From IMG/VR virus record IMGVR_UViG_3300025276_000021: a stretch of DNA of 64,000 nt, one strand, 5' to 3'. The notes under the pieces are model-generated. The model saw only the letters and a list, made by a program, of their open reading frames with translations, searched no databases and was not told the DNA's origin. The position numbers and the translations under genes were made by a program. Shown piece by piece: positions 4,261-53,736 of this stretch. Every line of letters begins with the position of its first letter. Within the stretch, counting starts at the first letter, position 1. Origin of the DNA: a virus.

Positions 4261-4268
4261 TATTTATA
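4261..4268 (-). promoter_or_regulatory. T4-type late promoter TATAAATA
   Basis: exact TATAAATA 25 nt upstream of the 4236 start. Confidence 0.75.
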
Positions 4269-4456: not shown

Positions 4457-5611
4457 TTAGAATGAGAATGAGATTCCTGCATCAATCCATTGACGTTTTG
4501 CATCGTCATTCATAACTCCAATTTTCGCTGTTGCGCCACCAAGATCATACTCAACACCAAAGCCTGTGTATGATGTATCAGCGGAACCAACTGTAGTAAC
4601 GTCTTTCTGAAAAACTGTTCCTGTCAAGGCAGAGATATTATATGAAATGCTAATTGCAGTTTCTTCAACATCTGCGGCAGTACCGTTATCATCTTCTGAC
4701 TGTACAACTTTAGCTGTAATATCAGCCATAGTCATTCCAGCACCATATGAGGTTTGAGTTGCTGTTCCGATTTGAGAATGTCCTACGCCAACATTAACAG
4801 CAACGCCGCTAATATCTTGAGAATAAGAAAGACCTACAGCATTATTGCTTCCTGATTGAATTGTAGTATCCATCGACAATGCTGCAGTAATACCCATTGT
4901 ACTCAATTCCCAGCCTAGATTATGTGCGCTAGATTGATATGACAATTCGTTATTATTGCCTAAACCCGCAATACCAACACCAGCAACATCACCTACAGTA
5001 ATCTCATCTGCTCCGTCTAGATCGCCCATTGAGATTTTGCCGAATGTGCCGCTGATATATTGAGAACCCGCAGTGCCTGCATTACCGGCAACAGCGTTAT
5101 CAGCACGAATAGTTGCGCCAAAAGAAAGACCGTTATCAAGTGTGCCCTCACCTGTGAAAGCAATACGAACACGATTTACTGCAGATGTTGTATCCTTAAC
5201 AGCGTCAGTGCCTACAGTACCATCTGTTGCATCAATTGCTGCATCCCAAGCTGTAATTGCAGCATTGTATGATGTTACCTCTGCGGCAGTAGGGCCAGAA
5301 ATAAGTCCAAACGCAGTGACAGCCGCAGCCCGATCTGCTCGGAGTTCTGTTAGCAGAGTGACGGCAGTTGAGTCGCTAGTTGCTGCCGCAGCAGATAGAT
5401 CAGATGCCCAAGTACCTACAGCGGTATCAAGTGCTGTAATCTGTGCTGCAGTATACGCACCTTCTGTTGCTGCAACAGCGGCAGTACCTTCAACACTCTG
5501 TACTCCCATACGGGCAGAACCTGTGATACCCAATTTAAAATCTGCTGCGGAAACGGTAGTTGTGAGTGCTGTTGTTGCAAGCATAGCAACGGCAAGAGTA
5601 GTAAACTTCAT
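4457..5611 (-). CDS. alphaproteobacterial (Rhodobacter-type) porin with large insertion
   Basis: signal peptide; RVRIAFTGEGTLDNGLSFGATIRAD and ISGTFGKISMGDLDGA motifs; C-terminal beta-signal AGISFSF. Confidence 0.85.
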   Translation of the reverse strand: MKFTTLAVAMLATTALTTTVSAADFKLGITGSARMGVQSVEGTAAVAATEGAYTAAQITALDTAVGTWASDLSAAAATSDSTAVTLLTELRADRAAAVTAFGLISGPTAAEVTSYNAAITAWDAAIDATDGTVGTDAVKDTTSAVNRVRIAFTGEGTLDNGLSFGATIRADNAVAGNAGTAGSQYISGTFGKISMGDLDGADEITVGDVAGVGIAGLGNNNELSYQSSAHNLGWELSTMGITAALSMDTTIQSGSNNAVGLSYSQDISGVAVNVGVGHSQIGTATQTSYGAGMTMADITAKVVQSEDDNGTAADVEETAISISYNISALTGTVFQKDVTTVGSADTSYTGFGVEYDLGGATAKIGVMNDDAKRQWIDAGISFSF

Positions 5612-5641
5612 TAAAATATTCCTTTGTGATTAAATAAAATA

Positions 5642-6060
5642 CGACTTTTCTGTTGCTAGGTAAGTCGCCAACCCCCTGTGTTATGCAGCTAGTGCGTAAC
5701 CAGATGGTGCAAAATTATTGTTTGCATTTAGTAGTTTCTTCGCGTTAACCCAGCTTAGATCGGGATAGTCTCCATGTTTCCGTCCACATCTGTCGATCCT
5801 ATTTCATCCCCATCATAAAGTCACTGAACCTAGAGGTTTACAGATATATTTAACTGTATCCCAATGTCCGTCTGCTGGAACTTCTGTATACTCTACAAGC
5901 ATAGTTTCGCATTTCAATTTGGTATCAAATTGCTGTATGTCTTGCTCTAAACAAGTAGAGCCAGAGCAAACCGTCAGTAGTATATGCCAGATAATTTCCA
6001 TTTCAAATGTCCTTATGGTGGAGATGCGCGGTACTGCCCCGCGGTCCAGTATATGTCAAG
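5642..6060 (-). ncRNA. ssrA: two-piece, circularly permuted tmRNA (acceptor piece ~6060-6016; coding piece 5811-~5642)
   Basis: acceptor stem GGGGATG (5811-5805) pairs with CATCTCC-A-CCA (ending 6016), with G3:U70; T-arm CGCGG-GGCAGTA-CCGCG; tag frame ANNNFAPSGYALAA* at 5725-5681; GCAACAGAA motif downstream; outer ends approximate. Confidence 0.95.
5813..6001 (-). CDS. 62-aa four-Cys protein inside the tmRNA intervening segment (YebW/DUF1482-like pattern)
   Basis: TAAGGA SD immediately after the tmRNA CCA; ATG 6001; TGA 1 nt before tmRNA G1; hydrophobic N-terminus, CxxxxC...C...C. Confidence 0.7.
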   Translation of the reverse strand: MEIIWHILLTVCSGSTCLEQDIQQFDTKLKCETMLVEYTEVPADGHWDTVKYICKPLGSVTL

Positions 6061-6116
6061 TTAATATCATCAACTACAGTAGTATATAGTCTCCTATTTG
6101 TCATTTAATTGACAAC

Positions 6117-34005: not shown

Positions 34006-34947
34006 TTAAAATTTTATTCGCATATTAGCGTTTATTCTAGAAATCTCTATTGCCAAATCTTGATTTCTGTCGTGCATCTCAATCTCTTTGCCGAGTTTAT
34101 TTTCAATCCAATCCTCAGCTTTGTCCCATTCAAATTGAACACCAGAGCGCATATCATTTCTTATTTCATGGGTCATATGTACTTGTCTTATTTTATAATT
34201 ATTAACAATTACCTCGTCCCATTGTCCAGCTGGCATCCGATCTTCATTATAATGACTTTGTATCTTTTTGGCAAGTGCTTTAGCATTCTTCTTATATGTT
34301 TTTGTTGCGGCTTCAATATAACCTTTGATAATATCAGAAAGTTCTCCGCTTCTATTTTTTTGCTTTAATTCTGCAGGCAGAAGTTGCCAATACATGGTTA
34401 GACTTTCGCCTTTATTATTAGGTTTTTTACCCCAAACTCTTTCAATAGCACTTATAACATATTTTTCCATATCAGCAGGCATAGTTCCCAAATCCTTTAG
34501 ATCGACCTTGGTATTTTCAAATTTATCAGTGTATGTATCAGAGCGAGCCAATTCATACATTTCATACCAACGCCTGCCCGAATTGTCGGGTTCTGATCCA
34601 ATATCACCGGAGAACGATCCTAACAAATCAGCTTCCAATTCATAGATAACTTGAGCACCACTAGTGGCGACACCTCTAGCAAGACTCGTAGAGGACATAT
34701 TCAAAAATGCGGAAATGCCGCGCTTTTTGTTCTCACCTTTAAACATCGTTTTATGAAACTGTTGAGCTGCAATATGCCAGCAAGTTATTCTTGGAGGAGT
34801 AGGAGTGATCTGTTTCATTTGTGCTGAGGACATAGGCATCCAAAAATTTGCAATGCCTTCATTATCGCTTTTTTTGATATCAAATAGCTTTTGAGATAAA
34901 CTACTTTTACCATGCAATTCTAATAAATAAGACTTAAAATTTTGCAT
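34006..34947 (-). CDS. putative internal head protein, ADP-ribosyltransferase-like (paralogue of 35406-36362)
   Basis: leader MQNFKSYLLE; WH...GISAF...IYEL...WDEVIVN. Confidence 0.5.
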   Translation of the reverse strand: MQNFKSYLLELHGKSSLSQKLFDIKKSDNEGIANFWMPMSSAQMKQITPTPPRITCWHIAAQQFHKTMFKGENKKRGISAFLNMSSTSLARGVATSGAQVIYELEADLLGSFSGDIGSEPDNSGRRWYEMYELARSDTYTDKFENTKVDLKDLGTMPADMEKYVISAIERVWGKKPNNKGESLTMYWQLLPAELKQKNRSGELSDIIKGYIEAATKTYKKNAKALAKKIQSHYNEDRMPAGQWDEVIVNNYKIRQVHMTHEIRNDMRSGVQFEWDKAEDWIENKLGKEIEMHDRNQDLAIEISRINANMRIKF

Positions 34948-35406
34948 CTATTTTGCTTTCCTTGTCAATATATAAAGAGATAATTCATCCAAATCTAGTT
35001 CTTCAATTTTAAAGCCCATTTTAGTAGCAAATCGTTTTACTAATTTACTGTATAATTTGTTTCTGCTTCCGCTCTCACCATCTTCGGCAGATTTAGATGC
35101 TGTAAAACTTGCGACTTTTATTTGTGGATTTTTCTCTATAAATTCTTTTATGTGGTTTATTACTGCGCCAAATATTTGCATTTGGTCGCCTTTACCAGTA
35201 ACAGACATATCACCACCAACACTGAATACAATATTAACGTCCGATTTTTCAGGAATATTTTTAGATTGTGACCAATTATAAATCATTTCTACAAATTGTT
35301 TACCTATTCGACCGAGATATTTTTCAGTTTCAGGTCTGGTGCTAGTTTGTTTCCACTGAATTTTAGTGTTGAACGATTCGCCCAAATGTGATTTAAAACT
35401 TATCAT
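34948..35406 (-). CDS. putative internal head protein, unknown function
   Basis: leader MISFKSHLGE; C-terminal SRNKLYSKL...GF is loosely GNAT-like. Confidence 0.55.
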   Translation of the reverse strand: MISFKSHLGESFNTKIQWKQTSTRPETEKYLGRIGKQFVEMIYNWSQSKNIPEKSDVNIVFSVGGDMSVTGKGDQMQIFGAVINHIKEFIEKNPQIKVASFTASKSAEDGESGSRNKLYSKLVKRFATKMGFKIEELDLDELSLYILTRKAK

Positions 35407-36362
35407 TAACTTTTAATCCTTGTTGCTAATATATGGGACTGTAAATCTCTAGAATTATCCCACTCAACAACCTCTATACCTCTACTTTTAGCATCTTCCA
35501 TTGCATCTGTAACATCTGACCATAATCCATTTACAAATTGTGGTGCGGAGAGTAGTACATGTAGTTTTTTAACTTTATACTGATTGACAATCATTTCGTC
35601 CCAGGCAGCCTTGTCCAACTTATCAACATATTGTTTTTTTAGTGCAGTCGCTATTTTCTTTGAATTTTTCATATAAGATTTGTTGACTGTATCAATATAA
35701 CCCTTGATAATATTGCCCATCTCTTTTTTTGCGCCAGCTGAGTCAGGCGAACCATGTTTATCTTCTAAGTGTCTTGGTACATCTACCCAATCTGGGCGTA
35801 AGCCTCTTTTTGTATGTCCGTCTAAATTGCCTAATACTTTTCTCACATATGTTTCTATATCTTTGGGTAAACTACCCAAGTCGTTTTTCTCAAGTGGTCT
35901 ATGTAAATCGTTGATATGTGGGAAATCAGAAGTGTTATGGAATCCAGTGTCTAATAATGATTGCAATGTTACCCATCTTCTACCAGTCTTATCTACGCCT
36001 GAACGCACATCCGTTTCGAATGAACCTAAAAGATTAGCATCTAATTCATAGATAAAACCACCGCCAGACGCAATACCTCTATCCATACTACTTGGTTTCA
36101 TATTTCTAAATGCGGACAGTCCAGATTTTTTGTTTTGTCCTTTAACAAGTTTATCGTGATTACTTTCGCTAGTGACATGAAAAACAGAGCCTCTAATTTC
36201 AGTTGGCATCACTCTTTTTATGTTTGCATTACCCATAGGTATTTTAAATGACATTATATCACCATCTTTGCCGCCGAAAAGAGGCATATTAAAGAGATGC
36301 TTGGATAAGCTTGCCTGACTAAAAACTTCCTCTAATTGCATATATTGATAGAATGTTTTCAT
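35406..36362 (-). CDS. putative internal head protein, ADP-ribosyltransferase-like (paralogue of 34006-34947)
   Basis: leader MKTFYQYMQLEE; FH...GLSAF...IYEL...WDEMIVN. Confidence 0.5.
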   Translation of the reverse strand: MKTFYQYMQLEEVFSQASLSKHLFNMPLFGGKDGDIMSFKIPMGNANIKRVMPTEIRGSVFHVTSESNHDKLVKGQNKKSGLSAFRNMKPSSMDRGIASGGGFIYELDANLLGSFETDVRSGVDKTGRRWVTLQSLLDTGFHNTSDFPHINDLHRPLEKNDLGSLPKDIETYVRKVLGNLDGHTKRGLRPDWVDVPRHLEDKHGSPDSAGAKKEMGNIIKGYIDTVNKSYMKNSKKIATALKKQYVDKLDKAAWDEMIVNQYKVKKLHVLLSAPQFVNGLWSDVTDAMEDAKSRGIEVVEWDNSRDLQSHILATRIKS

Positions 36363-36625
36363 TTTCTATTCCTGAGTCTCGGTTCTCTACGATTATATCT
36401 TACTGTGACTGACGCTAGATTTTTCAAGTCATTGTTGAGAGGATTATTATCTTTGTGATGGATGTCACGACCATCTCCATCCTCTGCCATTCCAGACCGA
36501 ACAGCGGCGCGTCTTGCTCTTTTTCTAGCTGCATTTCTTTTCATCTGCTCAGGAGTACCAAGATAGTTTTCGCGTTCTTTTTTATAGTCTCTACCTTCAC
36601 TAATATATGCTTTAAAAGTTTTCAT
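36359..36625 (-). CDS. small HNH endonuclease-like protein with capsid-targeting-like leader
   Basis: MKTFKAYISE; DIHHKDNNPLNNDLKNL...NR. Confidence 0.75.
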   Translation of the reverse strand: MKTFKAYISEGRDYKKERENYLGTPEQMKRNAARKRARRAAVRSGMAEDGDGRDIHHKDNNPLNNDLKNLASVTVRYNRREPRLRNRK

Positions 36626-37191
36626 GCTACATTATCCCAAAAAGTTTTACTAATTTCGCCTGCAGGAGAGGCAGACGTACTAGATGCTGGAGTGTTTGCA
36701 GTCCCACCCATATTGCTGTGGTTTGTACAGTAATAATATAAATTAGGAGCACCAACAGCAACAGTTATCTGAGTATATGCTCCAGCACTTCCCGGAGTTC
36801 CTGACGTTGTTACGCCCGTTGTGTATTCACTACCACCGCCATGTGTCCCATTAGATGTAGCACTGAATCTTAATGGATGGTTTGAGTTAGAAGAATCTGA
36901 TTGATCAAATTTATATGTTCTACCTTCTGATAAACTTAATATTCTCTCGGGCCCAACTGCATCTATATAATATCTATTTCCTACTCCTGGATTTGAAACT
37001 GTTACAGCAAAGGTAACAGTACCAGCACTTACTGTTCTGCGGACACTTGTATACACAGCATGACCATTTGTAGTTCTAATACCATTTGTTTGTTTTAACC
37101 ATAGAGGTCTTAATGGGCTATTAGCACCGGGATCAGGCGGAGCGTTATCATATTGCCAACTAGAATTGTTTGTAATATTTACGAACGCCAT
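36622..37191 (-). CDS. protein with cupredoxin/plastocyanin-like domain, probably virion-associated
   Basis: NHPLRFS...LYYYCTNHSNMGG; late promoter upstream. Confidence 0.7.
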   Translation of the reverse strand: MAFVNITNNSSWQYDNAPPDPGANSPLRPLWLKQTNGIRTTNGHAVYTSVRRTVSAGTVTFAVTVSNPGVGNRYYIDAVGPERILSLSEGRTYKFDQSDSSNSNHPLRFSATSNGTHGGGSEYTTGVTTSGTPGSAGAYTQITVAVGAPNLYYYCTNHSNMGGTANTPASSTSASPAGEISKTFWDNVA

Positions 37192-37203
37192 GTGTCGGTC
37201 TCC

Positions 37204-38418
37204 TCATCGTTTGTTTTTACTATTTATATGTTTTAATAAATCTTCTTTATTGCTTTTACCAGTCTTAATAGAATAGTCTAGTGCAGATTGTAATACATCT
37301 CCAATAGCTTTACCCTTAAATCCAGCTTTAACTGCATCTCTACCATCTATTGGCATGTCTTTTACTGAAATATATTTTATACCCTTTAGTCTACTCGACA
37401 GAGTTTTAGATCCTTTTGCAGATAAAAATGCGTCTATAGCTCTAACATCAACACTTTTAGCATAGTTTGCAAGCTCAACATTATTCATACCTTCTTTCCA
37501 GTCTACGACATTTTGAACAATTTTTGCATCCGTATTCGAAAGTCGTATGACTGTTTTGGCAGTTGAGCCTGCTTTGTTTCCGTAGTCGCTAAGTAATATT
37601 CCCATGAATACAGCAAAATCACTTTTGCCGAGAGCGTCAATTGTTTTCAAATCGTTTGATTTTAATTTAATTGATTTAAATATATGTTTCATCAAACCAG
37701 AATCGAATAGTATTTTTACACCAATACTAGGTTTCTTAGATTTACTGAAAAGCTTTTTAAATTCTTCTTGGAATCTATCTGCGGAAATGGTAGAGATAGT
37801 GCTTGCTCTTTTCTTCATTTCCTTGTATGTCTCTTTTTCGATAGTAAAATCAAATCTTGATGCAAACTGCACAGCTCGAAACATTCTGAGAGGATCATCC
37901 TCGAACGATGTTGGACTGATCATGCGGATTTGCTTATTCTTTATATCCTTCATGCCTTTACCATCAACGTCTATTATCTCACCAGTATCAACATCTTTCG
38001 CTAGTGCATTTATCCAAAAATCGCGCCTTAGCTGATCTTGCTGTAGCGTAATGCCTTTACCAAGTTCTACTTCAAAGTCTTTATGACCTGAGCCTGTGCT
38101 TTTTGAGTCAATTCTTGGCACAGAAATATCTACATCCTCAGCTTCAGTAGAGCCTGTAGGAACAAATTTTAGAATGCCGAACGACTTGCCTACCATGTTG
38201 ACTTTACCGTGAGGCTTTAGAATTTTTTCTATATCATCTAACTCGATTCCAACAATGATAATATCAAGATCCTTAGATATTTTACCTATCATTTCATCAC
38301 GGACAACACCGCCTATTTGATATATTTTCCCACCCGCGCTTTTGATTGCTTTTCGTATCTGCGTTGACAGAAGGTCATCGACCATACTTTCATTCAAATG
38401 AGATATAAAACTTTTCAT
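37204..38418 (-). CDS. cca: class II tRNA nucleotidyltransferase (CCA-adding enzyme) with capsid-targeting-like leader
   Basis: GGVVRD, DLDI, DQLRRDFWINAL, EDDPLRMFRAVQFASRF; leader MKSFISHLNE. Confidence 0.88.
   Translation of the reverse strand: MKSFISHLNESMVDDLLSTQIRKAIKSAGGKIYQIGGVVRDEMIGKISKDLDIIIVGIELDDIEKILKPHGKVNMVGKSFGILKFVPTGSTEAEDVDISVPRIDSKSTGSGHKDFEVELGKGITLQQDQLRRDFWINALAKDVDTGEIIDVDGKGMKDIKNKQIRMISPTSFEDDPLRMFRAVQFASRFDFTIEKETYKEMKKRASTISTISADRFQEEFKKLFSKSKKPSIGVKILFDSGLMKHIFKSIKLKSNDLKTIDALGKSDFAVFMGILLSDYGNKAGSTAKTVIRLSNTDAKIVQNVVDWKEGMNNVELANYAKSVDVRAIDAFLSAKGSKTLSSRLKGIKYISVKDMPIDGRDAVKAGFKGKAIGDVLQSALDYSIKTGKSNKEDLLKHINSKNKR
37221..37228 (-). promoter_or_regulatory. T4-type late promoter TATAAATA
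   Basis: exact match within the 3' end of cca, upstream of 37191. Confidence 0.7.
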
Positions 38419-38428
38419 GGTTTATTCC

Positions 38429-38776
38429 TTACCAGTGTTGTACATCTGGATATCTGACAATTGCTCTAATTGATCTTACGGCTAGCTTTGCTGTCGGATC
38501 ACCCCTATCATATAATACAACCTCTGTACCATTTACAAAATCTGATACATTCACACCTTTGCCTATAAGAGACATGGTTCTGTGTAAATAATCATTTTCG
38601 TCGTAATCATTTTCAAATCCTGCTTTGCCTCGAACCTCAACCCACTTACTGCCTGGTAATGGTCGAATCCTTAGAATACCCATCTTACCTTGCCTGATAT
38701 AGGTCAATGCGTAAGACTCTTTTTTCTTACGTTGATTTTTCGTCAATTCAGTTATAAATCTAGTAAAAGATTTCAT
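38429..38776 (-). CDS. putative internal head protein, unknown function
   Basis: leader MKSFTRFITE. Confidence 0.6.
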   Translation of the reverse strand: MKSFTRFITELTKNQRKKKESYALTYIRQGKMGILRIRPLPGSKWVEVRGKAGFENDYDENDYLHRTMSLIGKGVNVSDFVNGTEVVLYDRGDPTAKLAVRSIRAIVRYPDVQHW

Positions 38777-38781
38777 AGCAT

Positions 38782-39345
38782 TTATCCTTTCACATAAGGT
38801 TTGATAATAGTTTCTATGTTTTTTATGATTTTCTTATGTGTAGGACTAAGATCCTTACGATCAGCTTTTACAGCGTCTAAGGCTATTTTTGTATCGCCCG
38901 CATATTTCTTTTGCCATGATGCTGGCTGCTTTGCAATATCAGACACATTTGCTAATCTATCTGCAAGTTTAATAACAAGTGCCCAGCTTGTCATATTAAC
39001 CATTTTGCCTTTGATATATTCACCTTTGCCGCCGGCAGCTTCTAGATCATCTTTCTTAGTTGTCAATTGATCAACTAAATTTGCAACTAATCCACCAAAC
39101 TGTTTGACCAAATCGTCATGCGATAAGTCAGTGTCCTCTAACGTATCGTGTAGATATGCAGCTTGAACTAGTGCAGATAGATTTGAGGATTTAGGTTTGA
39201 ATTTTGCGACTATTTTCGCAACTTCTTTTGGATGAGCAATATATCTACCACCACTTTTCCTAAATTGTCCTTCATGTGCCTTTGTAGCAACTCTTAATGC
39301 ACTTAGGGCGCTTTCATTAAGCATATGCGACTTAAAAGATTTCAT
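38782..39345 (-). CDS. stand-alone RelA/SpoT HD-domain hydrolase (small alarmone hydrolase) with capsid-targeting-like leader
   Basis: AHEGQFRKSG..YIAHP, LHDTLEDT, IKLADRLAN; leader MKSFKSHMLNE. Confidence 0.88.
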   Translation of the reverse strand: MKSFKSHMLNESALSALRVATKAHEGQFRKSGGRYIAHPKEVAKIVAKFKPKSSNLSALVQAAYLHDTLEDTDLSHDDLVKQFGGLVANLVDQLTTKKDDLEAAGGKGEYIKGKMVNMTSWALVIKLADRLANVSDIAKQPASWQKKYAGDTKIALDAVKADRKDLSPTHKKIIKNIETIIKPYVKG

Positions 39346-39419: not shown

Positions 39420-39836
39420 TTACTTTTTTCCGATGTTATATTTGGGACACAATTCCCAATTTACTTTTTCTTTAAAAGGAATAATCTTAATCTGTCTCAG
39501 AGGTGCCATAATTTCGGCTGCCTTACCATTAACTAAAGTAATCAATCCCCAATCAGAAATGAGTGTTGCTATAGTGTTTCTTCTAGCAACGTCACTTTCT
39601 TCAAGGTTAGATTTTTTACCATCTAGTAGAAATAGTTCCTTAAAATGTACTATAAAGTATCTACCCTGCTTATGCAGAATATGACACGATTGAAATAATT
39701 TATTCTCTTTTCTACTCGAAACGCCGATTCTAGTTAAAGTTTCACGAACCTTCAGAAAATCGTCAGGTTCGTTTAAGGTAATCTCTAACATGGATTCCGG
39801 AGTCCAAGCAACTATATTTGATTCATCCATTGTCAA
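39420..39836 (-). CDS. regA: translational repressor RegA
   Basis: PDDFLKVRETLTRIG...QSCHILHKQGRYFIVHFKELF. Confidence 0.96.
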   Translation of the reverse strand: MTMDESNIVAWTPESMLEITLNEPDDFLKVRETLTRIGVSSRKENKLFQSCHILHKQGRYFIVHFKELFLLDGKKSNLEESDVARRNTIATLISDWGLITLVNGKAAEIMAPLRQIKIIPFKEKVNWELCPKYNIGKK

Positions 39837-39874: not shown

Positions 39875-39882
39875 TATTTATA
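39875..39882 (-). promoter_or_regulatory. T4-type late promoter TATAAATA
   Basis: exact match upstream of regA and the 34-39 kb cassette. Confidence 0.7.
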
Positions 39883-50405: not shown

Positions 50406-51755
50406 TTATGCACCCAGAATGTTGTCAACTCTGAAGATTCTGTAATACTGATTAGTCTTAGCGTTTGCAAGACCGTCAGAAGCTGTTGGACCAACAAAAG
50501 GATTCGAAACCATGCCGTAGCGGGTCTTAAAGCCGATTTTTGGTTGAAAGCTATCCTCAGCAACAGCGCGAACCATTGTGAGAGGTACGTATGGGCAATA
50601 GAAGATACCAGCATCGTATGCATTTGTACCTTTATAGCCACATGTGATGTAGTCAACAGTTGCATATGGATCAACATATACTTTTGTACGACCGTTAAGA
50701 ACACCAGCAAAAGTGTTTCCTGTATCATCTACGTTCAAGTTGGCAGAGATTGCTGGAGCATAGTCTAGCATTCCGGTTGCAGCCAAGCATGACGCAACGT
50801 CCGAAGAAGTGATGATAAAGTTACCACGACCGCGGCGAGTATCTTTTGCGATTGCGTTTGCTTCGCGCTCGATTTGTACCATCAGACCTTTGAACTTTTC
50901 AACACTCCAACGACCGTCTGCATCTGTTTGCAGATCAAACACACCGTTAAGAAGGGTGTTAGCTTGACTTGCGCCAGTTTTAGCTTGGCTGTTGATTGTG
51001 CGGATAACTTCACGATTGATTTCCGCGAGGATTTCAGTCGAAAGAATGTTAGCCAGTTCACTTTCAGCGTCCAGACCGTGGATAGCTTTCAAGTCTTGTG
51101 CGAGTTCAAGCGAATATTCTGCTTTCAATGCGCGTGTTTTGGCTGATACGTCTGCACGATCAATGGTGAAACCCATTTCTGCCCATGCGCTTGCGCCGGA
51201 TGTGCCCAGTCCTTCGCCTTCAACTTTAGTCATGCCGCCTGCAGGAGCTGCACTATTACGGTTATCGTCGATAGTTGAGTCTGCGTTAGCATCAGCAACA
51301 CCAGCAAGACCAGAACCATCTACAATGTTAGTTGTAGCGGAATCGCCTGAGAAGCCAGTGACGGCTTCGCTATGCAGTGCTTCATTGCCGCTAGTTGCAC
51401 CAGCGCGAGTAGTTTTGTAGGTAGATTTCATTGCAAAGATCAGTCCAGTTGGACCAGTCATTGGCTGAACACCACATACGTCATATGCCATCATGTTAGG
51501 CATAGCACGACGAACCAACGAAATCAGAACTGGGTCCCAATTTTGTACGTTACCAGTGTTGTTTGCTGGAGCTGCTTCAGTCAGTCCACCAAAACCTTGG
51601 TATTGTGTGCGCTGCTCCATGAGAGCTTTTTCTTGGTTCTCAAGAACAACAGCAGTTACCGACTTGCGGTGCTTGTCTTGAATTGCGCCAGCAGATTCTT
51701 CATTCAGAACTGGTGCCCACTTTTCAATAAGTGTATTGTAGTTAGTTGTTTGCAT
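50406..51755 (-). CDS. gp23: major capsid protein
   Basis: KWAPVL, LTEA cleavage site, VQPMTGPTGLIFAM, YCPYVPL, FKTRYG. Confidence 0.98.
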   Translation of the reverse strand: MQTTNYNTLIEKWAPVLNEESAGAIQDKHRKSVTAVVLENQEKALMEQRTQYQGFGGLTEAAPANNTGNVQNWDPVLISLVRRAMPNMMAYDVCGVQPMTGPTGLIFAMKSTYKTTRAGATSGNEALHSEAVTGFSGDSATTNIVDGSGLAGVADANADSTIDDNRNSAAPAGGMTKVEGEGLGTSGASAWAEMGFTIDRADVSAKTRALKAEYSLELAQDLKAIHGLDAESELANILSTEILAEINREVIRTINSQAKTGASQANTLLNGVFDLQTDADGRWSVEKFKGLMVQIEREANAIAKDTRRGRGNFIITSSDVASCLAATGMLDYAPAISANLNVDDTGNTFAGVLNGRTKVYVDPYATVDYITCGYKGTNAYDAGIFYCPYVPLTMVRAVAEDSFQPKIGFKTRYGMVSNPFVGPTASDGLANAKTNQYYRIFRVDNILGA

Positions 51756-51766
51756 TTTAATAACTC

Positions 51767-52867
51767 CTAGGTATTATTTTTAAGTGCGGCAACATAATGT
51801 GCCATGCTAGAGGAAACATCAACAGGCGCTTCTGTTTCTTCGCTTTCTTCAGTAATCATTGTTTCTTCAACTAGATCAGCATGTGTTTCTACATCTGATT
51901 TATTTGAAAAATATGATTCCTTGATGGTTTCGACTTTAAAGAGAAACGACTCAACGTCCTCAAATTCGATTCCTTCTGCTAGTTTTTCTAATTTGGTTGC
52001 TTGAGTATCTGCAAGATCCTTAGAAGCTTCACGAATGATCGCGAGGCGTTGTAGGTCTTTTACATGCTCATTCATTTCCATATTAGTAGCTGTTTGCTTG
52101 TTTAGGCGAGTCTCAAGTTCTTGGACTTCCTCTGCAAGCTGGTCAACTAGATCAACTTTGGATTCTGGAACTTCGATATATGACTCAGTAAACAGGTCTT
52201 TCAACTTGCTCATAAATCCTTCTGAAATTTCATTCCGAATACCAGTCTCAACAGCGAGACGGTTTTCTTCTACCCATTGTTCGACTACATAGTTAAGATA
52301 AGAATCAATTTTGTCTACCAATTCGCTTTTGGCTTCCACAATTGCTTCCGAAGTCTCGTCGGCGTATTGCTCTTCGAGGCTTTCGATTCTATTGCTAAAT
52401 GCTTCTTCCAATTCTTGAACTTTTGATTCAACCCGAAGGTTCAATGCGGCTTCAAAAATAGTGCCAGCTTTATCTTTAAAATCTTCTGATAGTGACTCAT
52501 CGCTTGAAATCAGTGCTTCGAGATCAGCTTCGGTAGTATCTTCTACCATCACTTCTTCCTCGTCACTTACTTCAATTTCTTCGCCCATCATGCTTGAATA
52601 AGCCGCCATCAACTTAACTTTGTTAAGCTCTGACATTTTTTGGCTCATTGCATTGATCATACCCGCTTTAGTTTTCGGGGGTGATGCTTTTTTTACATTG
52701 CTAGTATCACCAGCGGCTTTTGCTGGATCAGCGGGGCCTCCGGTACCAGCATCTTCAGATCCACCGGCTGGCAGCTCCATGCTGCTCTCCGATACATCTA
52801 GTTCTTCGTTAGATTCCACAATTTCCTCATCATGGACTTCAACGTATTCTTGATCTTGATCAGTCAT
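51767..52867 (-). CDS. gp22: prohead core scaffold protein
   Basis: acidic coiled coil, IFEAA, DSYLNYVVEQW; synteny. Confidence 0.92.
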   Translation of the reverse strand: MTDQDQEYVEVHDEEIVESNEELDVSESSMELPAGGSEDAGTGGPADPAKAAGDTSNVKKASPPKTKAGMINAMSQKMSELNKVKLMAAYSSMMGEEIEVSDEEEVMVEDTTEADLEALISSDESLSEDFKDKAGTIFEAALNLRVESKVQELEEAFSNRIESLEEQYADETSEAIVEAKSELVDKIDSYLNYVVEQWVEENRLAVETGIRNEISEGFMSKLKDLFTESYIEVPESKVDLVDQLAEEVQELETRLNKQTATNMEMNEHVKDLQRLAIIREASKDLADTQATKLEKLAEGIEFEDVESFLFKVETIKESYFSNKSDVETHADLVEETMITEESEETEAPVDVSSSMAHYVAALKNNT

Positions 52868-52881
52868 ACTTGACTCCTTTT

Positions 52882-53529
52882 TTATTTCAATAACGAGAGG
52901 AAATTTTCAAACCCACGAACTTGCGCTTCTTGCAATGCTCTTGATGGTGCTCTTTTTATTTCAGTCTCTATTTTTTCAATGTCTTGAGCCTCGATCAGAC
53001 CATTATTCCAAACCCACTCTACACCTTCCATAATTCCATTAACAAAAGCATTAGGTGCAGATGGATCCTGGACAATGTCGATAGTGCTAAGGACGAAATC
53101 GTCTTTAACTTCCATCACGCCGTTACGATTTTCCAGACTTCCCATACCACGAGTCGAAACACCTAGTTGAACACCGCCATCTAGCAGACCTTTAACAATC
53201 TTACCCATAGGAGTATCTAATATAAGTGCTTTACCCATCACATTATTTCCCTCAAAATTGAGATCCGTAATACGATGGGATACTTTATCCAAATTAATAG
53301 TCGGGCCTTCGGGGTGATTTAACTCACCAACAGCACGACCTTTGGAAACTTGTTCTGTAACATATTTGCCTACAGCTTTTTCCATAATCGCTTTCGGATA
53401 ATTTCTACCGTTACGATTTTTTTGGTCAGCTTGTGCAAATACACCTTCGATTTGATAAGACTTAGCTTCGCCTTTACCTTCAGTGACCAGTGATAGATCG
53501 TGGTCACAATATTCTGCGATTAGTTTCAT
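52882..53529 (-). CDS. gp21: prohead protease
   Basis: NRNGRNY, GELNHP, GVSTRGMGSL, DIVQDPSAPNAFV. Confidence 0.96.
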   Translation of the reverse strand: MKLIAEYCDHDLSLVTEGKGEAKSYQIEGVFAQADQKNRNGRNYPKAIMEKAVGKYVTEQVSKGRAVGELNHPEGPTINLDKVSHRITDLNFEGNNVMGKALILDTPMGKIVKGLLDGGVQLGVSTRGMGSLENRNGVMEVKDDFVLSTIDIVQDPSAPNAFVNGIMEGVEWVWNNGLIEAQDIEKIETEIKRAPSRALQEAQVRGFENFLSLLK

Positions 53530-53532
53530 GTC

Positions 53533-53736
53533 TTATCCTTTACCTTTAGAAAATTGTTTAATAAACTCTTTAGCCATTTTAATAGCATCTTTTTCAGAAT
53601 CGTAATCATCTAAATGTTCGCCGTCGATAGTAGCTTTAAATCGATCACCAGCTTTAGTGACAACAATCGTTTGATCTCCAACCTTAACTTTTTTCTCAGT
53701 CAACAACGATTCTTTTAGTTCATTAAAAGTTTTCAT
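53533..53736 (-). CDS. prohead core protein (gp68-like)
   Basis: MKTFNELKESLLTE leader; position before gp21. Confidence 0.6.
   Translation of the reverse strand: MKTFNELKESLLTEKKVKVGDQTIVVTKAGDRFKATIDGEHLDDYDSEKDAIKMAKEFIKQFSKGKG

Follow-up and report, generated by a model that had tools for sequence, protein, structure and literature searches.

The closest described counterparts of the locus analysed here are the internal head proteins of phage T4, a head cargo of small inhibitors and an ADP-ribosyltransferase. These proteins enter the capsid by an N-terminal tag: in the T4 record ipII and ipIII start with MKTYQEFIAE and ipI with MKTFKEF...ITE, and mutagenesis of the tag has mapped targeting to residues 4 and 7 and proteolytic processing to residues 8 and 10 (PMC9026906). 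In jumbo phages, both CCA-adding enzymes and alarmone-type HD hydrolases have been described as genes of repair or counter-defence (PMC7824862), and neither enzyme type was found described with a capsid-targeting sequence in the literature we searched. We analysed a stretch of 64,000 nucleotides (nt) from IMG/VR virus record IMGVR_UViG_3300025276_000021, hereafter the window, in which a tRNA nucleotidyltransferase (NTase) of predicted CCA type and a stand-alone HD hydrolase of the RelA/SpoT type both begin with a T4-like leader. A preliminary description of this DNA had reported an intact class II NTase and a stand-alone RelA/SpoT HD protein one gene apart; both open reading frames (ORFs) were recovered exactly as described, with complete motifs. 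The three genes concerned are:

37204..38418, minus strand: class II tRNA nucleotidyltransferase, predicted CCA type, 404 amino acids (aa); PolyA_pol and RNA-binding domains, phrog_2244; leader residues 1-10 at 38389-38418
38429..38776, minus strand: u115, 115 aa, leader MKSFTRFITE, between the HD and NTase genes; no family match
38782..39345, minus strand: predicted stand-alone RelA/SpoT-type HD hydrolase, 187 aa; HD_4, spoT_relA, phrog_990; leader residues 1-11 at 39313-39345

Besides the u115 leader given above, the HD protein begins with MKSFKSHMLNE and the NTase with MKSFISHLNE. The pattern ^M..[FY]..[FYH][LIMVT].{1,2}E occurs in 7 of the 84 non-overlapping ORFs of the window, against 0.06 expected, and these make up a contiguous block at 34006-39345; the earlier observation that both enzymes share the leader is thereby confirmed. 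Across the NTase family the leader columns are nearly fixed, with F at position 4, H, F or Y at position 7 and L, I or V at position 8 in 21 of 21 sequences, and E at position 10 in 19 of them. The leaders of the NTase and u115 (F4, H/F7, L/I8, E10) match the positions mapped in T4. The same leader residues are written in different codons, for example Ser3 as AGT or TCT, and the first 13 nt are identical in two of the leaders. A search for the NTase family returned 1600 database matches; the leader was counted in the 120 best-scoring of these, which are 49-100% identical to the window protein, and 111 keep the leader start M..F. Because the family is so large and so generally tagged, the tagged NTase is a common trait in the ocean and not the curiosity of one genome.

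Among homologues of the HD protein, which belong with the small alarmone hydrolases (SAHs), the leader is present in all those of about 54% identity or more and absent from the more distant ones, below about 50%; the SAHs of cultured phages (a Vibrio phage, DLP_6, SSU5 and PVP-SE1) are leaderless. By this distribution, the leader is an add-on to the SAH family. Leaders on other proteins were seen in related contigs. In one (L040:1047-1988, also L042) a 313-aa protein with the leader MLRFKSFITE has an ADP-ribosyltransferase domain (PF03496, 2.6e-5), and is a probable analogue of Alt, which T4 packages. In another (L018:6706-11227) six consecutive cargo genes share the near-identical leader MKTFYQY..E, which on the HD gene is simply prepended to MNES...; the pattern suggests recombination within a genome that homogenises or exchanges leaders.

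The window also encodes the head proteins on which such a tag would act, and a possible late promoter ahead of the tagged genes:

50406..51755, minus strand: gp23 major capsid protein, phrog_138 2e-160; predicted maturation site ...GGLTE/AAPA, with the cut at the slash
51767..52867, minus strand: gp22-type head scaffold, phrog_237 2e-75; in T4 the core that binds capsid-targeted cargo
52882..53529, minus strand: gp21-type prohead protease, phrog_207 1.2e-77; the enzyme expected to clip the leaders
39420..39836, minus strand: regA translational repressor, PF01818 1.5e-43, phrog_242; conserved upstream boundary of the leader-gene cassette
39875..39882, minus strand: fits the T4 late-promoter consensus TATAAATA; lies ahead of regA, HD, u115 and NTase, in the interval from gene 62 to regA; a consensus match only

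The predicted site LTE/A of gp23 aligns with the T4 gp23 site FLTE/AEIGG. Because the leader matches that of T4 and the gp21, gp22 and gp23 machinery is in the same genome, virion packaging, clipping by gp21 and injection are well supported as a prediction. We suggest, giving the proposal an even chance of being right, that the NTase and the HD protein are capsid-tagged enzymes, independent of each other, whose targets at infection are the chargeable-tRNA pool and the stringent alarm of the host. The genes directly downstream of regA, seven of them unrelated and each with a T4-type capsid-targeting propeptide, would form an internal-protein cassette whose products are made late in infection; the leader would bind each cargo to the gp22 scaffolding core, the gp21 prohead protease would clip the cargo after (L/I/M)-x-E, and the cargo would be ejected with the DNA into the next host. 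There, ahead of all phage gene expression, both enzymes would act on the host translation state, the SAH-type HD protein removing 3'-pyrophosphates from (p)ppGpp or (pp)pApp, possibly also from tRNA 3' ends, and the CCA-type NTase rebuilding truncated tRNA 3' ends. The two would share a target process and would not be steps of an obligate two-enzyme pathway.

Three points weigh against virion delivery. The argument for packaging, cleavage and injection is built on similarity over 10 residues and on context. The HD leader departs from the pattern, with M8 and E11 (F4, H7, L9-N-E11, a shift of one residue), and position 2 is Q or L in its relatives. Finally, the number of TATAAATA matches in the window is that of chance (9 found, 9.4 expected): they lie at 4261, 10911, 37221, 39875, 47175, 48984, 49682, 54055 and 62242, several of them just upstream of structural genes and all on the minus, coding strand, and the strand bias alone is suggestive. 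No terminator-like site was found between regA and the HD gene. The preliminary description had the enzymes delivered at injection; this holds as a reasonable inference from the T4-type leader and from gp21, gp22 and gp23, with sequence and context as its footing.

Alternatively, the proteins may not be packaged at all, the shared N-terminus being a recombination or translation-initiation cassette and the enzymes acting after their expression; we consider this improbable. The NTase would then mature or maintain tRNA and tmRNA of phage and host, and the SAH would suppress the host stringent response, a division of labour that we judge improbable to the same degree; suppression of the stringent response was reportedly once proposed for cyanophage MazG. 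The identity of the first 13 nt in two leaders is what a recombination cassette predicts, relatives of the phage group infect slow-growing marine oligotrophs (HTVC008M and Melnitz, with gp23 57-58% identical), other host-physiology genes are carried in the window, for a tmRNA and Hsp20, and leaderless CCA and alarmone-type HD enzymes are common in jumbo and other phages (PMC7824862). Against this, the leader is conserved as protein while its codons differ, exactly the T4 targeting and cleavage residues are kept, and the leader is also found on the Alt-like ADP-ribosyltransferase. The tmRNA gene (5590-6112, two-piece and permuted, with the tag ANNNFAPSGYALAA) has a 3' tRNA domain whose CCA end is encoded. 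A search for tRNA genes lacking an encoded CCA, which a maturation role would serve, turned up no tRNA genes either in the window or among the first 44 related IMG/VR loci (L001-L044), and such a role was rejected. The preliminary description had also joined the enzymes to the tmRNA in one protective system; this link is unsupported, as the tmRNA gene is 31 kb from the HD/NTase cassette and has an encoded CCA of its own, and the tmRNA is no part of the virion.

The identity of the NTase was considered next to its closest models and structures. It matches the PolyA_pol head (PF01743) at 1.3e-18 (67.9 bits against a cut-off of 23), PolyA_pol_RNAbd at 7.5e-15 and phrog_2244, 'tRNA nucleotidyltransferase', at 9e-60. 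The motifs GGVVRD, DLD (A), RRD (B), DDPLR..R (D) and ER..EE (E) are intact and invariant across 22 homologues (51-75% identity), save that in motif D (D174-D175-P-L-R178) position 174 is E in 3 of the 22 sequences, a conservative variant; from these intact motifs the enzyme looks active. Adding the terminal A requires the flexible loop between motifs A and B, and CC-adding enzymes have a shorter one. In the NTase this loop is not shortened, being 3 residues longer than in the Planococcus CCA enzyme 6ibp. CCA addition is, on these sequence features, the likeliest activity.

It is possible, and in our view quite unlikely, that the NTase is instead a poly(A) polymerase or an adder of A or another nucleotide, marking host RNAs for decay or modifying phage RNA. 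Several observations lean that way. The protein reaches no NCBIfam equivalog cut-off: its best score is 129.5 bits with TIGR02692 (cut-off 438.8), followed by 117.8 with PRK13299 (290) and 115.3 with TIGR01942 pcnB (305.65). Because no equivalog cut-off is reached and pcnB scores nearly as high as the best CCA model, CCA-adding activity is not established; judged by these profiles the NTase is a member of the superfamily and not of any curated equivalog. Its closest solved structures are CCA- and A-adding enzymes, among them E. coli poly(A) polymerase and the Aquifex A-adding enzyme, and the A-B loop, invariant in the phage family, is unlike that of canonical CCA enzymes in sequence. Against a poly(A) polymerase, residues 20-397 align over the full length of the Bacillus-type CCA model PRK13299, a tRNA_NucTran2_2 domain is present in relatives, and the loop is full-length, as in CCA- and A-adding enzymes; the recurrent end-healing partners of the family and the Thg1 neighbour in a huge phage, both described below, fit tRNA end repair.

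The HD protein matches HD_4 (PF13328) with 56 bits against a cut-off of 27.2, TIGR00691 spoT_relA at 3e-26, and phrog_990. The HD domain is its sole domain, the synthetase domain being absent. Metal ligands H38, H66-D67 and D129, catalytic residues E70-D71 and substrate-binding residues R29 and N133 all align to Rel/SpoT hydrolase structures, and with its catalytic motifs intact the protein looks active. The hydrolase domains of long Rel/SpoT enzymes match it best, with MESH1 and bacterial small alarmone hydrolases coming next. No synthetase-type RelA/SpoT-homologue (RSH) domain was found in the ten genes flanking the HD gene, whose neighbours are regA and the 115-aa protein, and the gene does not form the bicistronic arrangement with a small alarmone synthetase toxin (toxSAS) gene that characterises antitoxins of the ATfaRel type. 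All toxSAS tested were neutralised by SAHs, among them the stand-alone SAHs of phages PVP-SE1 and SSU5 (PMC7229694), and MESH1 or ATfaRel alone restores aminoacylation of FaRel2-pyrophosphorylated tRNA in vitro (10.1101/2021.04.30.441581). The premise of the preliminary description that SAHs reverse toxSAS products is therefore in agreement with published work, phage SAHs included. Because SAHs neutralise toxSAS and restore pyrophosphorylated tRNA, an anti-toxSAS role is plausible for the HD protein by analogy.

From the same premise it had been proposed that the HD protein and the NTase form a dedicated two-enzyme module against toxSAS and CapRel, in which the SAH strips pyrophosphate or alarmone and the NTase rebuilds the CCA end. 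Beyond the published activities of PVP-SE1, SSU5, MESH1 and ATfaRel just cited, this is favoured by proximity: the HD gene lies within 1 kb of the NTase gene in four sublineages, and the two lie within 2 kb of each other, beside Thg1, in an unrelated huge phage. That locus (L084, LR756508.1 80000-92000, from a 484-kb uncultured phage) encodes an SAH-type HD protein, DUF2828/DUF7788, a 117-aa ORF, a CCA-type NTase, a 334-aa ORF and a Thg1-like tRNA-His guanylyltransferase, with the HD, NTase and Thg1 genes in a span of 6 kb. The locus resembles a tRNA-repair neighbourhood, and because it groups these three genes an SAH-type HD protein can evidently sit in one, in favour of the earlier idea.

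We surveyed gene content in 67 related contigs. The HD gene alone was found in 17 contigs, the NTase gene alone in 34 and the two together in 17. The cassette that follows regA had the arrangement HD, u115, NTase in 16 contigs, HD only in 7, and u115 with NTase only in 2. Ten further contigs had the HD gene without the NTase gene, and 32, from more distant lineages, had the NTase gene in leader-gene cassettes with no HD_4 gene in the flanks, which reached up to 8 kb per side where the contig allowed. One subclade shows a clean indel of u115 plus NTase between the HD gene and the next gene; in a second lineage the leader-tagged HD gene lies among other cargo genes and the NTase gene is absent. 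In that lineage (L034:9358-10584) the leader-tagged HD gene is followed by one for a leader-tagged 408-aa protein, which was considered as a diverged NTase and rejected, being DUF6267 (5e-102).

Because the HD and NTase genes have been gained and lost separately across these contigs, we conclude that they are independent cargo genes and not a co-inherited module; u115 is the gene that tracks the NTase. The co-occurrence patterns led us to reject a fixed HD-NTase pairing. Joint repair of toxSAS damage is likewise not borne out, since toxSAS leaves the CCA end intact and SAH alone restores the tRNA, and the NTase step is unneeded for such damage. The indel unit of the window's clade is u115 plus NTase and not HD plus NTase, no synthetase-type RSH gene is adjacent, and the HD protein is just 31-34% identical to the tested phage SAHs. 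A dedicated HD-NTase module is, on balance, unlikely.

The protein encoded between the two enzymes gave few clues. We found no match to u115 in Pfam, PHROG, NCBIfam, PDB sequences or the phage collection, and its predicted fold (AlphaFold2, AF2; predicted local distance difference test, pLDDT, 79) gave nothing convincing with Foldseek or VIA-align (best Z 3.4). It is 82-98% conserved in relatives and is gained or lost jointly with the NTase gene. Complex prediction of NTase and u115 returned a score of 0.00, which counts neither for nor against binding. A core motif of u115, ..EVRGK.G(Y/F)E..YD.ND.LH.., recurs in at least 170 proteins of 87-2473 aa (hits P0128-P0276), among them some with additional cytidylyltransferase-like, DUF5824 or NT5C domains, in the style of polyvalent proteins.

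Partners of a different kind recur with the NTase family. In distant lineages a domain of about 140 aa, in which two HxT/S motifs are invariant, is either fused to the NTase or comes after it. The AF2 model of this domain has a pLDDT of 90.7, and its top Foldseek matches are all 2H phosphoesterases, namely cyclic phosphodiesterase (CPDase), Usb1, LigT and phage Acb1; this placement comes from the fold search only, with weak E-values of 7e-3 and above, and a profile of the domain gave no match to PDB sequences. Another protein (P0100) is a single fusion of leader, PF01966 HD domain, relic leader (YNSFLVES) and NTase. Because the recurrent partners are a 2H phosphoesterase or a PF01966 HD domain, they point to the healing of ends that a nuclease has cut and that bear a cyclic phosphate. 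The fusion evidence is not clean, because apparently unrelated modules also fuse, as in an NTase joined to an HNH-like module, and because the 2H domain resembles the anti-CBASS protein Acb1 (CBASS, cyclic-oligonucleotide-based antiphage signalling system). The HNH-like module in that fusion (P0025) has 88 aa, and a 768-aa cytidylyltransferase-like protein in a related contig (L018:11958-14264) ends in an HNH-like module as well.

A broader proposal, which we hold as doubtful, is that many marine T4-like phages inject a translation-rescue kit of a CCA enzyme with interchangeable 3'-phosphoesterases (2H, PF01966 HD or, as here, SAH-type HD) before phage genes are read. If so, attack on the tRNA acceptor end by pyrophosphorylation, trimming or addition of a wrong nucleotide, or its decay in starved cells, would be a first-line barrier to infection in ocean bacteria. 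On the narrower reading of two independent packaged enzymes, phages would pre-load enzymes that fix the host translation state at the moment of entry. The leader rule M..F..[FHY][LI].E gives a simple way to predict which effectors uncultured T4-like phages inject.

The window is T4-like myovirus DNA, carrying regA, clamp-loader genes 44 and 62 and the head module of gp23, gp22 and gp21. Its gp23 shares 65% identity with the capsid protein of phage C48C1 and 57-58% with those of Melnitz, HTVC008M and cyanomyoviruses; by these capsid-protein identities the phage belongs to a marine lineage without a close cultured relative. C48C1, the nearest deposited phage by capsid protein, has neither the HD nor the NTase gene, and a near-identity DNA search of the phage collection gave no match, the nearest record (G001) being without the gene. 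The regA gene adjoins the cassette in related contigs too. The remaining features are:

34006..37191, minus strand: rest of the leader-gene cassette: four leader proteins, one HNH-like of 88 aa and the others of 318, 152 and 313 aa, plus a leaderless protein of 189 aa
36622..37191, minus strand: tail-fibre-like ORF of 189 aa, the only cassette gene without a leader; resembles tail-fibre/baseplate domains (phrog_693, phrog_27200)
53533..53736, minus strand: 67-aa ORF, leader-like MKTFNELKE and then LLTE, directly upstream of gp21; no family match

The 189-aa ORF has a TATAAATA match of its own (37221-37228), 30 nt upstream and within the 3' end of the NTase gene. The 67-aa ORF occupies the position where T4 has small prohead-core proteins.

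Compared with known enzymes, the NTase resembles the class II CCA enzymes of Bacillus and Planococcus (6ibp) in having motifs A-E, a full-length loop, a neck/body region and a length of about 400 aa. It differs from bacterial CCA enzymes in that identity is about 30% and confined to the head domain, 19 of 22 family members have DDxxR and not EDxxR as motif D, the sequence of the loop is peculiar to the family, and a predicted capsid tag precedes the enzyme. The multifunctional Cca of E. coli combines NTase and HD domains, and phage relatives likewise add a phosphoesterase (2H or PF01966 HD), whereas the window NTase has none fused. The HD protein, for its part, is like the SAHs of Salmonella phages PVP-SE1 (PbcSpo) and SSU5 (PaSpo) and like ATfaRel in being a single-domain RelA/SpoT HD protein with complete catalytic residues, and is phage-encoded as the first two are. 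It differs from the tested phage SAHs in its low identity to them, 31-34%, and in its leader, which they lack; it also has no adjacent toxSAS gene and matches best the hydrolase domains of long Rel/SpoT enzymes, and its substrate is predicted from sequence.

In predicted function, the nearest systems are T4 Pnk and Rnl1, which act against PrrC, and the sets of CCA enzyme, Thg1 and RNA ligase of jumbo phages (PMC7824862), likewise predicted to restore tRNA ends. Expression of those enzymes follows infection, and they are not known as virion cargo, which the tagged enzymes here are predicted to be. In predicted delivery, the nearest are IPI, IPII, IPIII and Alt of T4, with which the window proteins share a 10-residue propeptide with aromatic residues at 4 and 7, I or L at 8 and E at 10, on mature proteins that are otherwise unrelated. 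As with the T4 internal proteins, the genes form a plastic cluster that varies among relatives, in a genome that encodes gp21, gp22 and gp23. The cassette lies beside regA, while that of T4 lies near gene e and tRNA genes, and packaging is predicted here from the genes alone. The cargo type is thus known from T4; new is the cargo predicted for it, since T4 packages small basic proteins, a nuclease inhibitor (IPI*) and an ADP-ribosyltransferase, whereas the phage described here would package a 45-kDa tRNA nucleotidyltransferase and an alarmone-type hydrolase.

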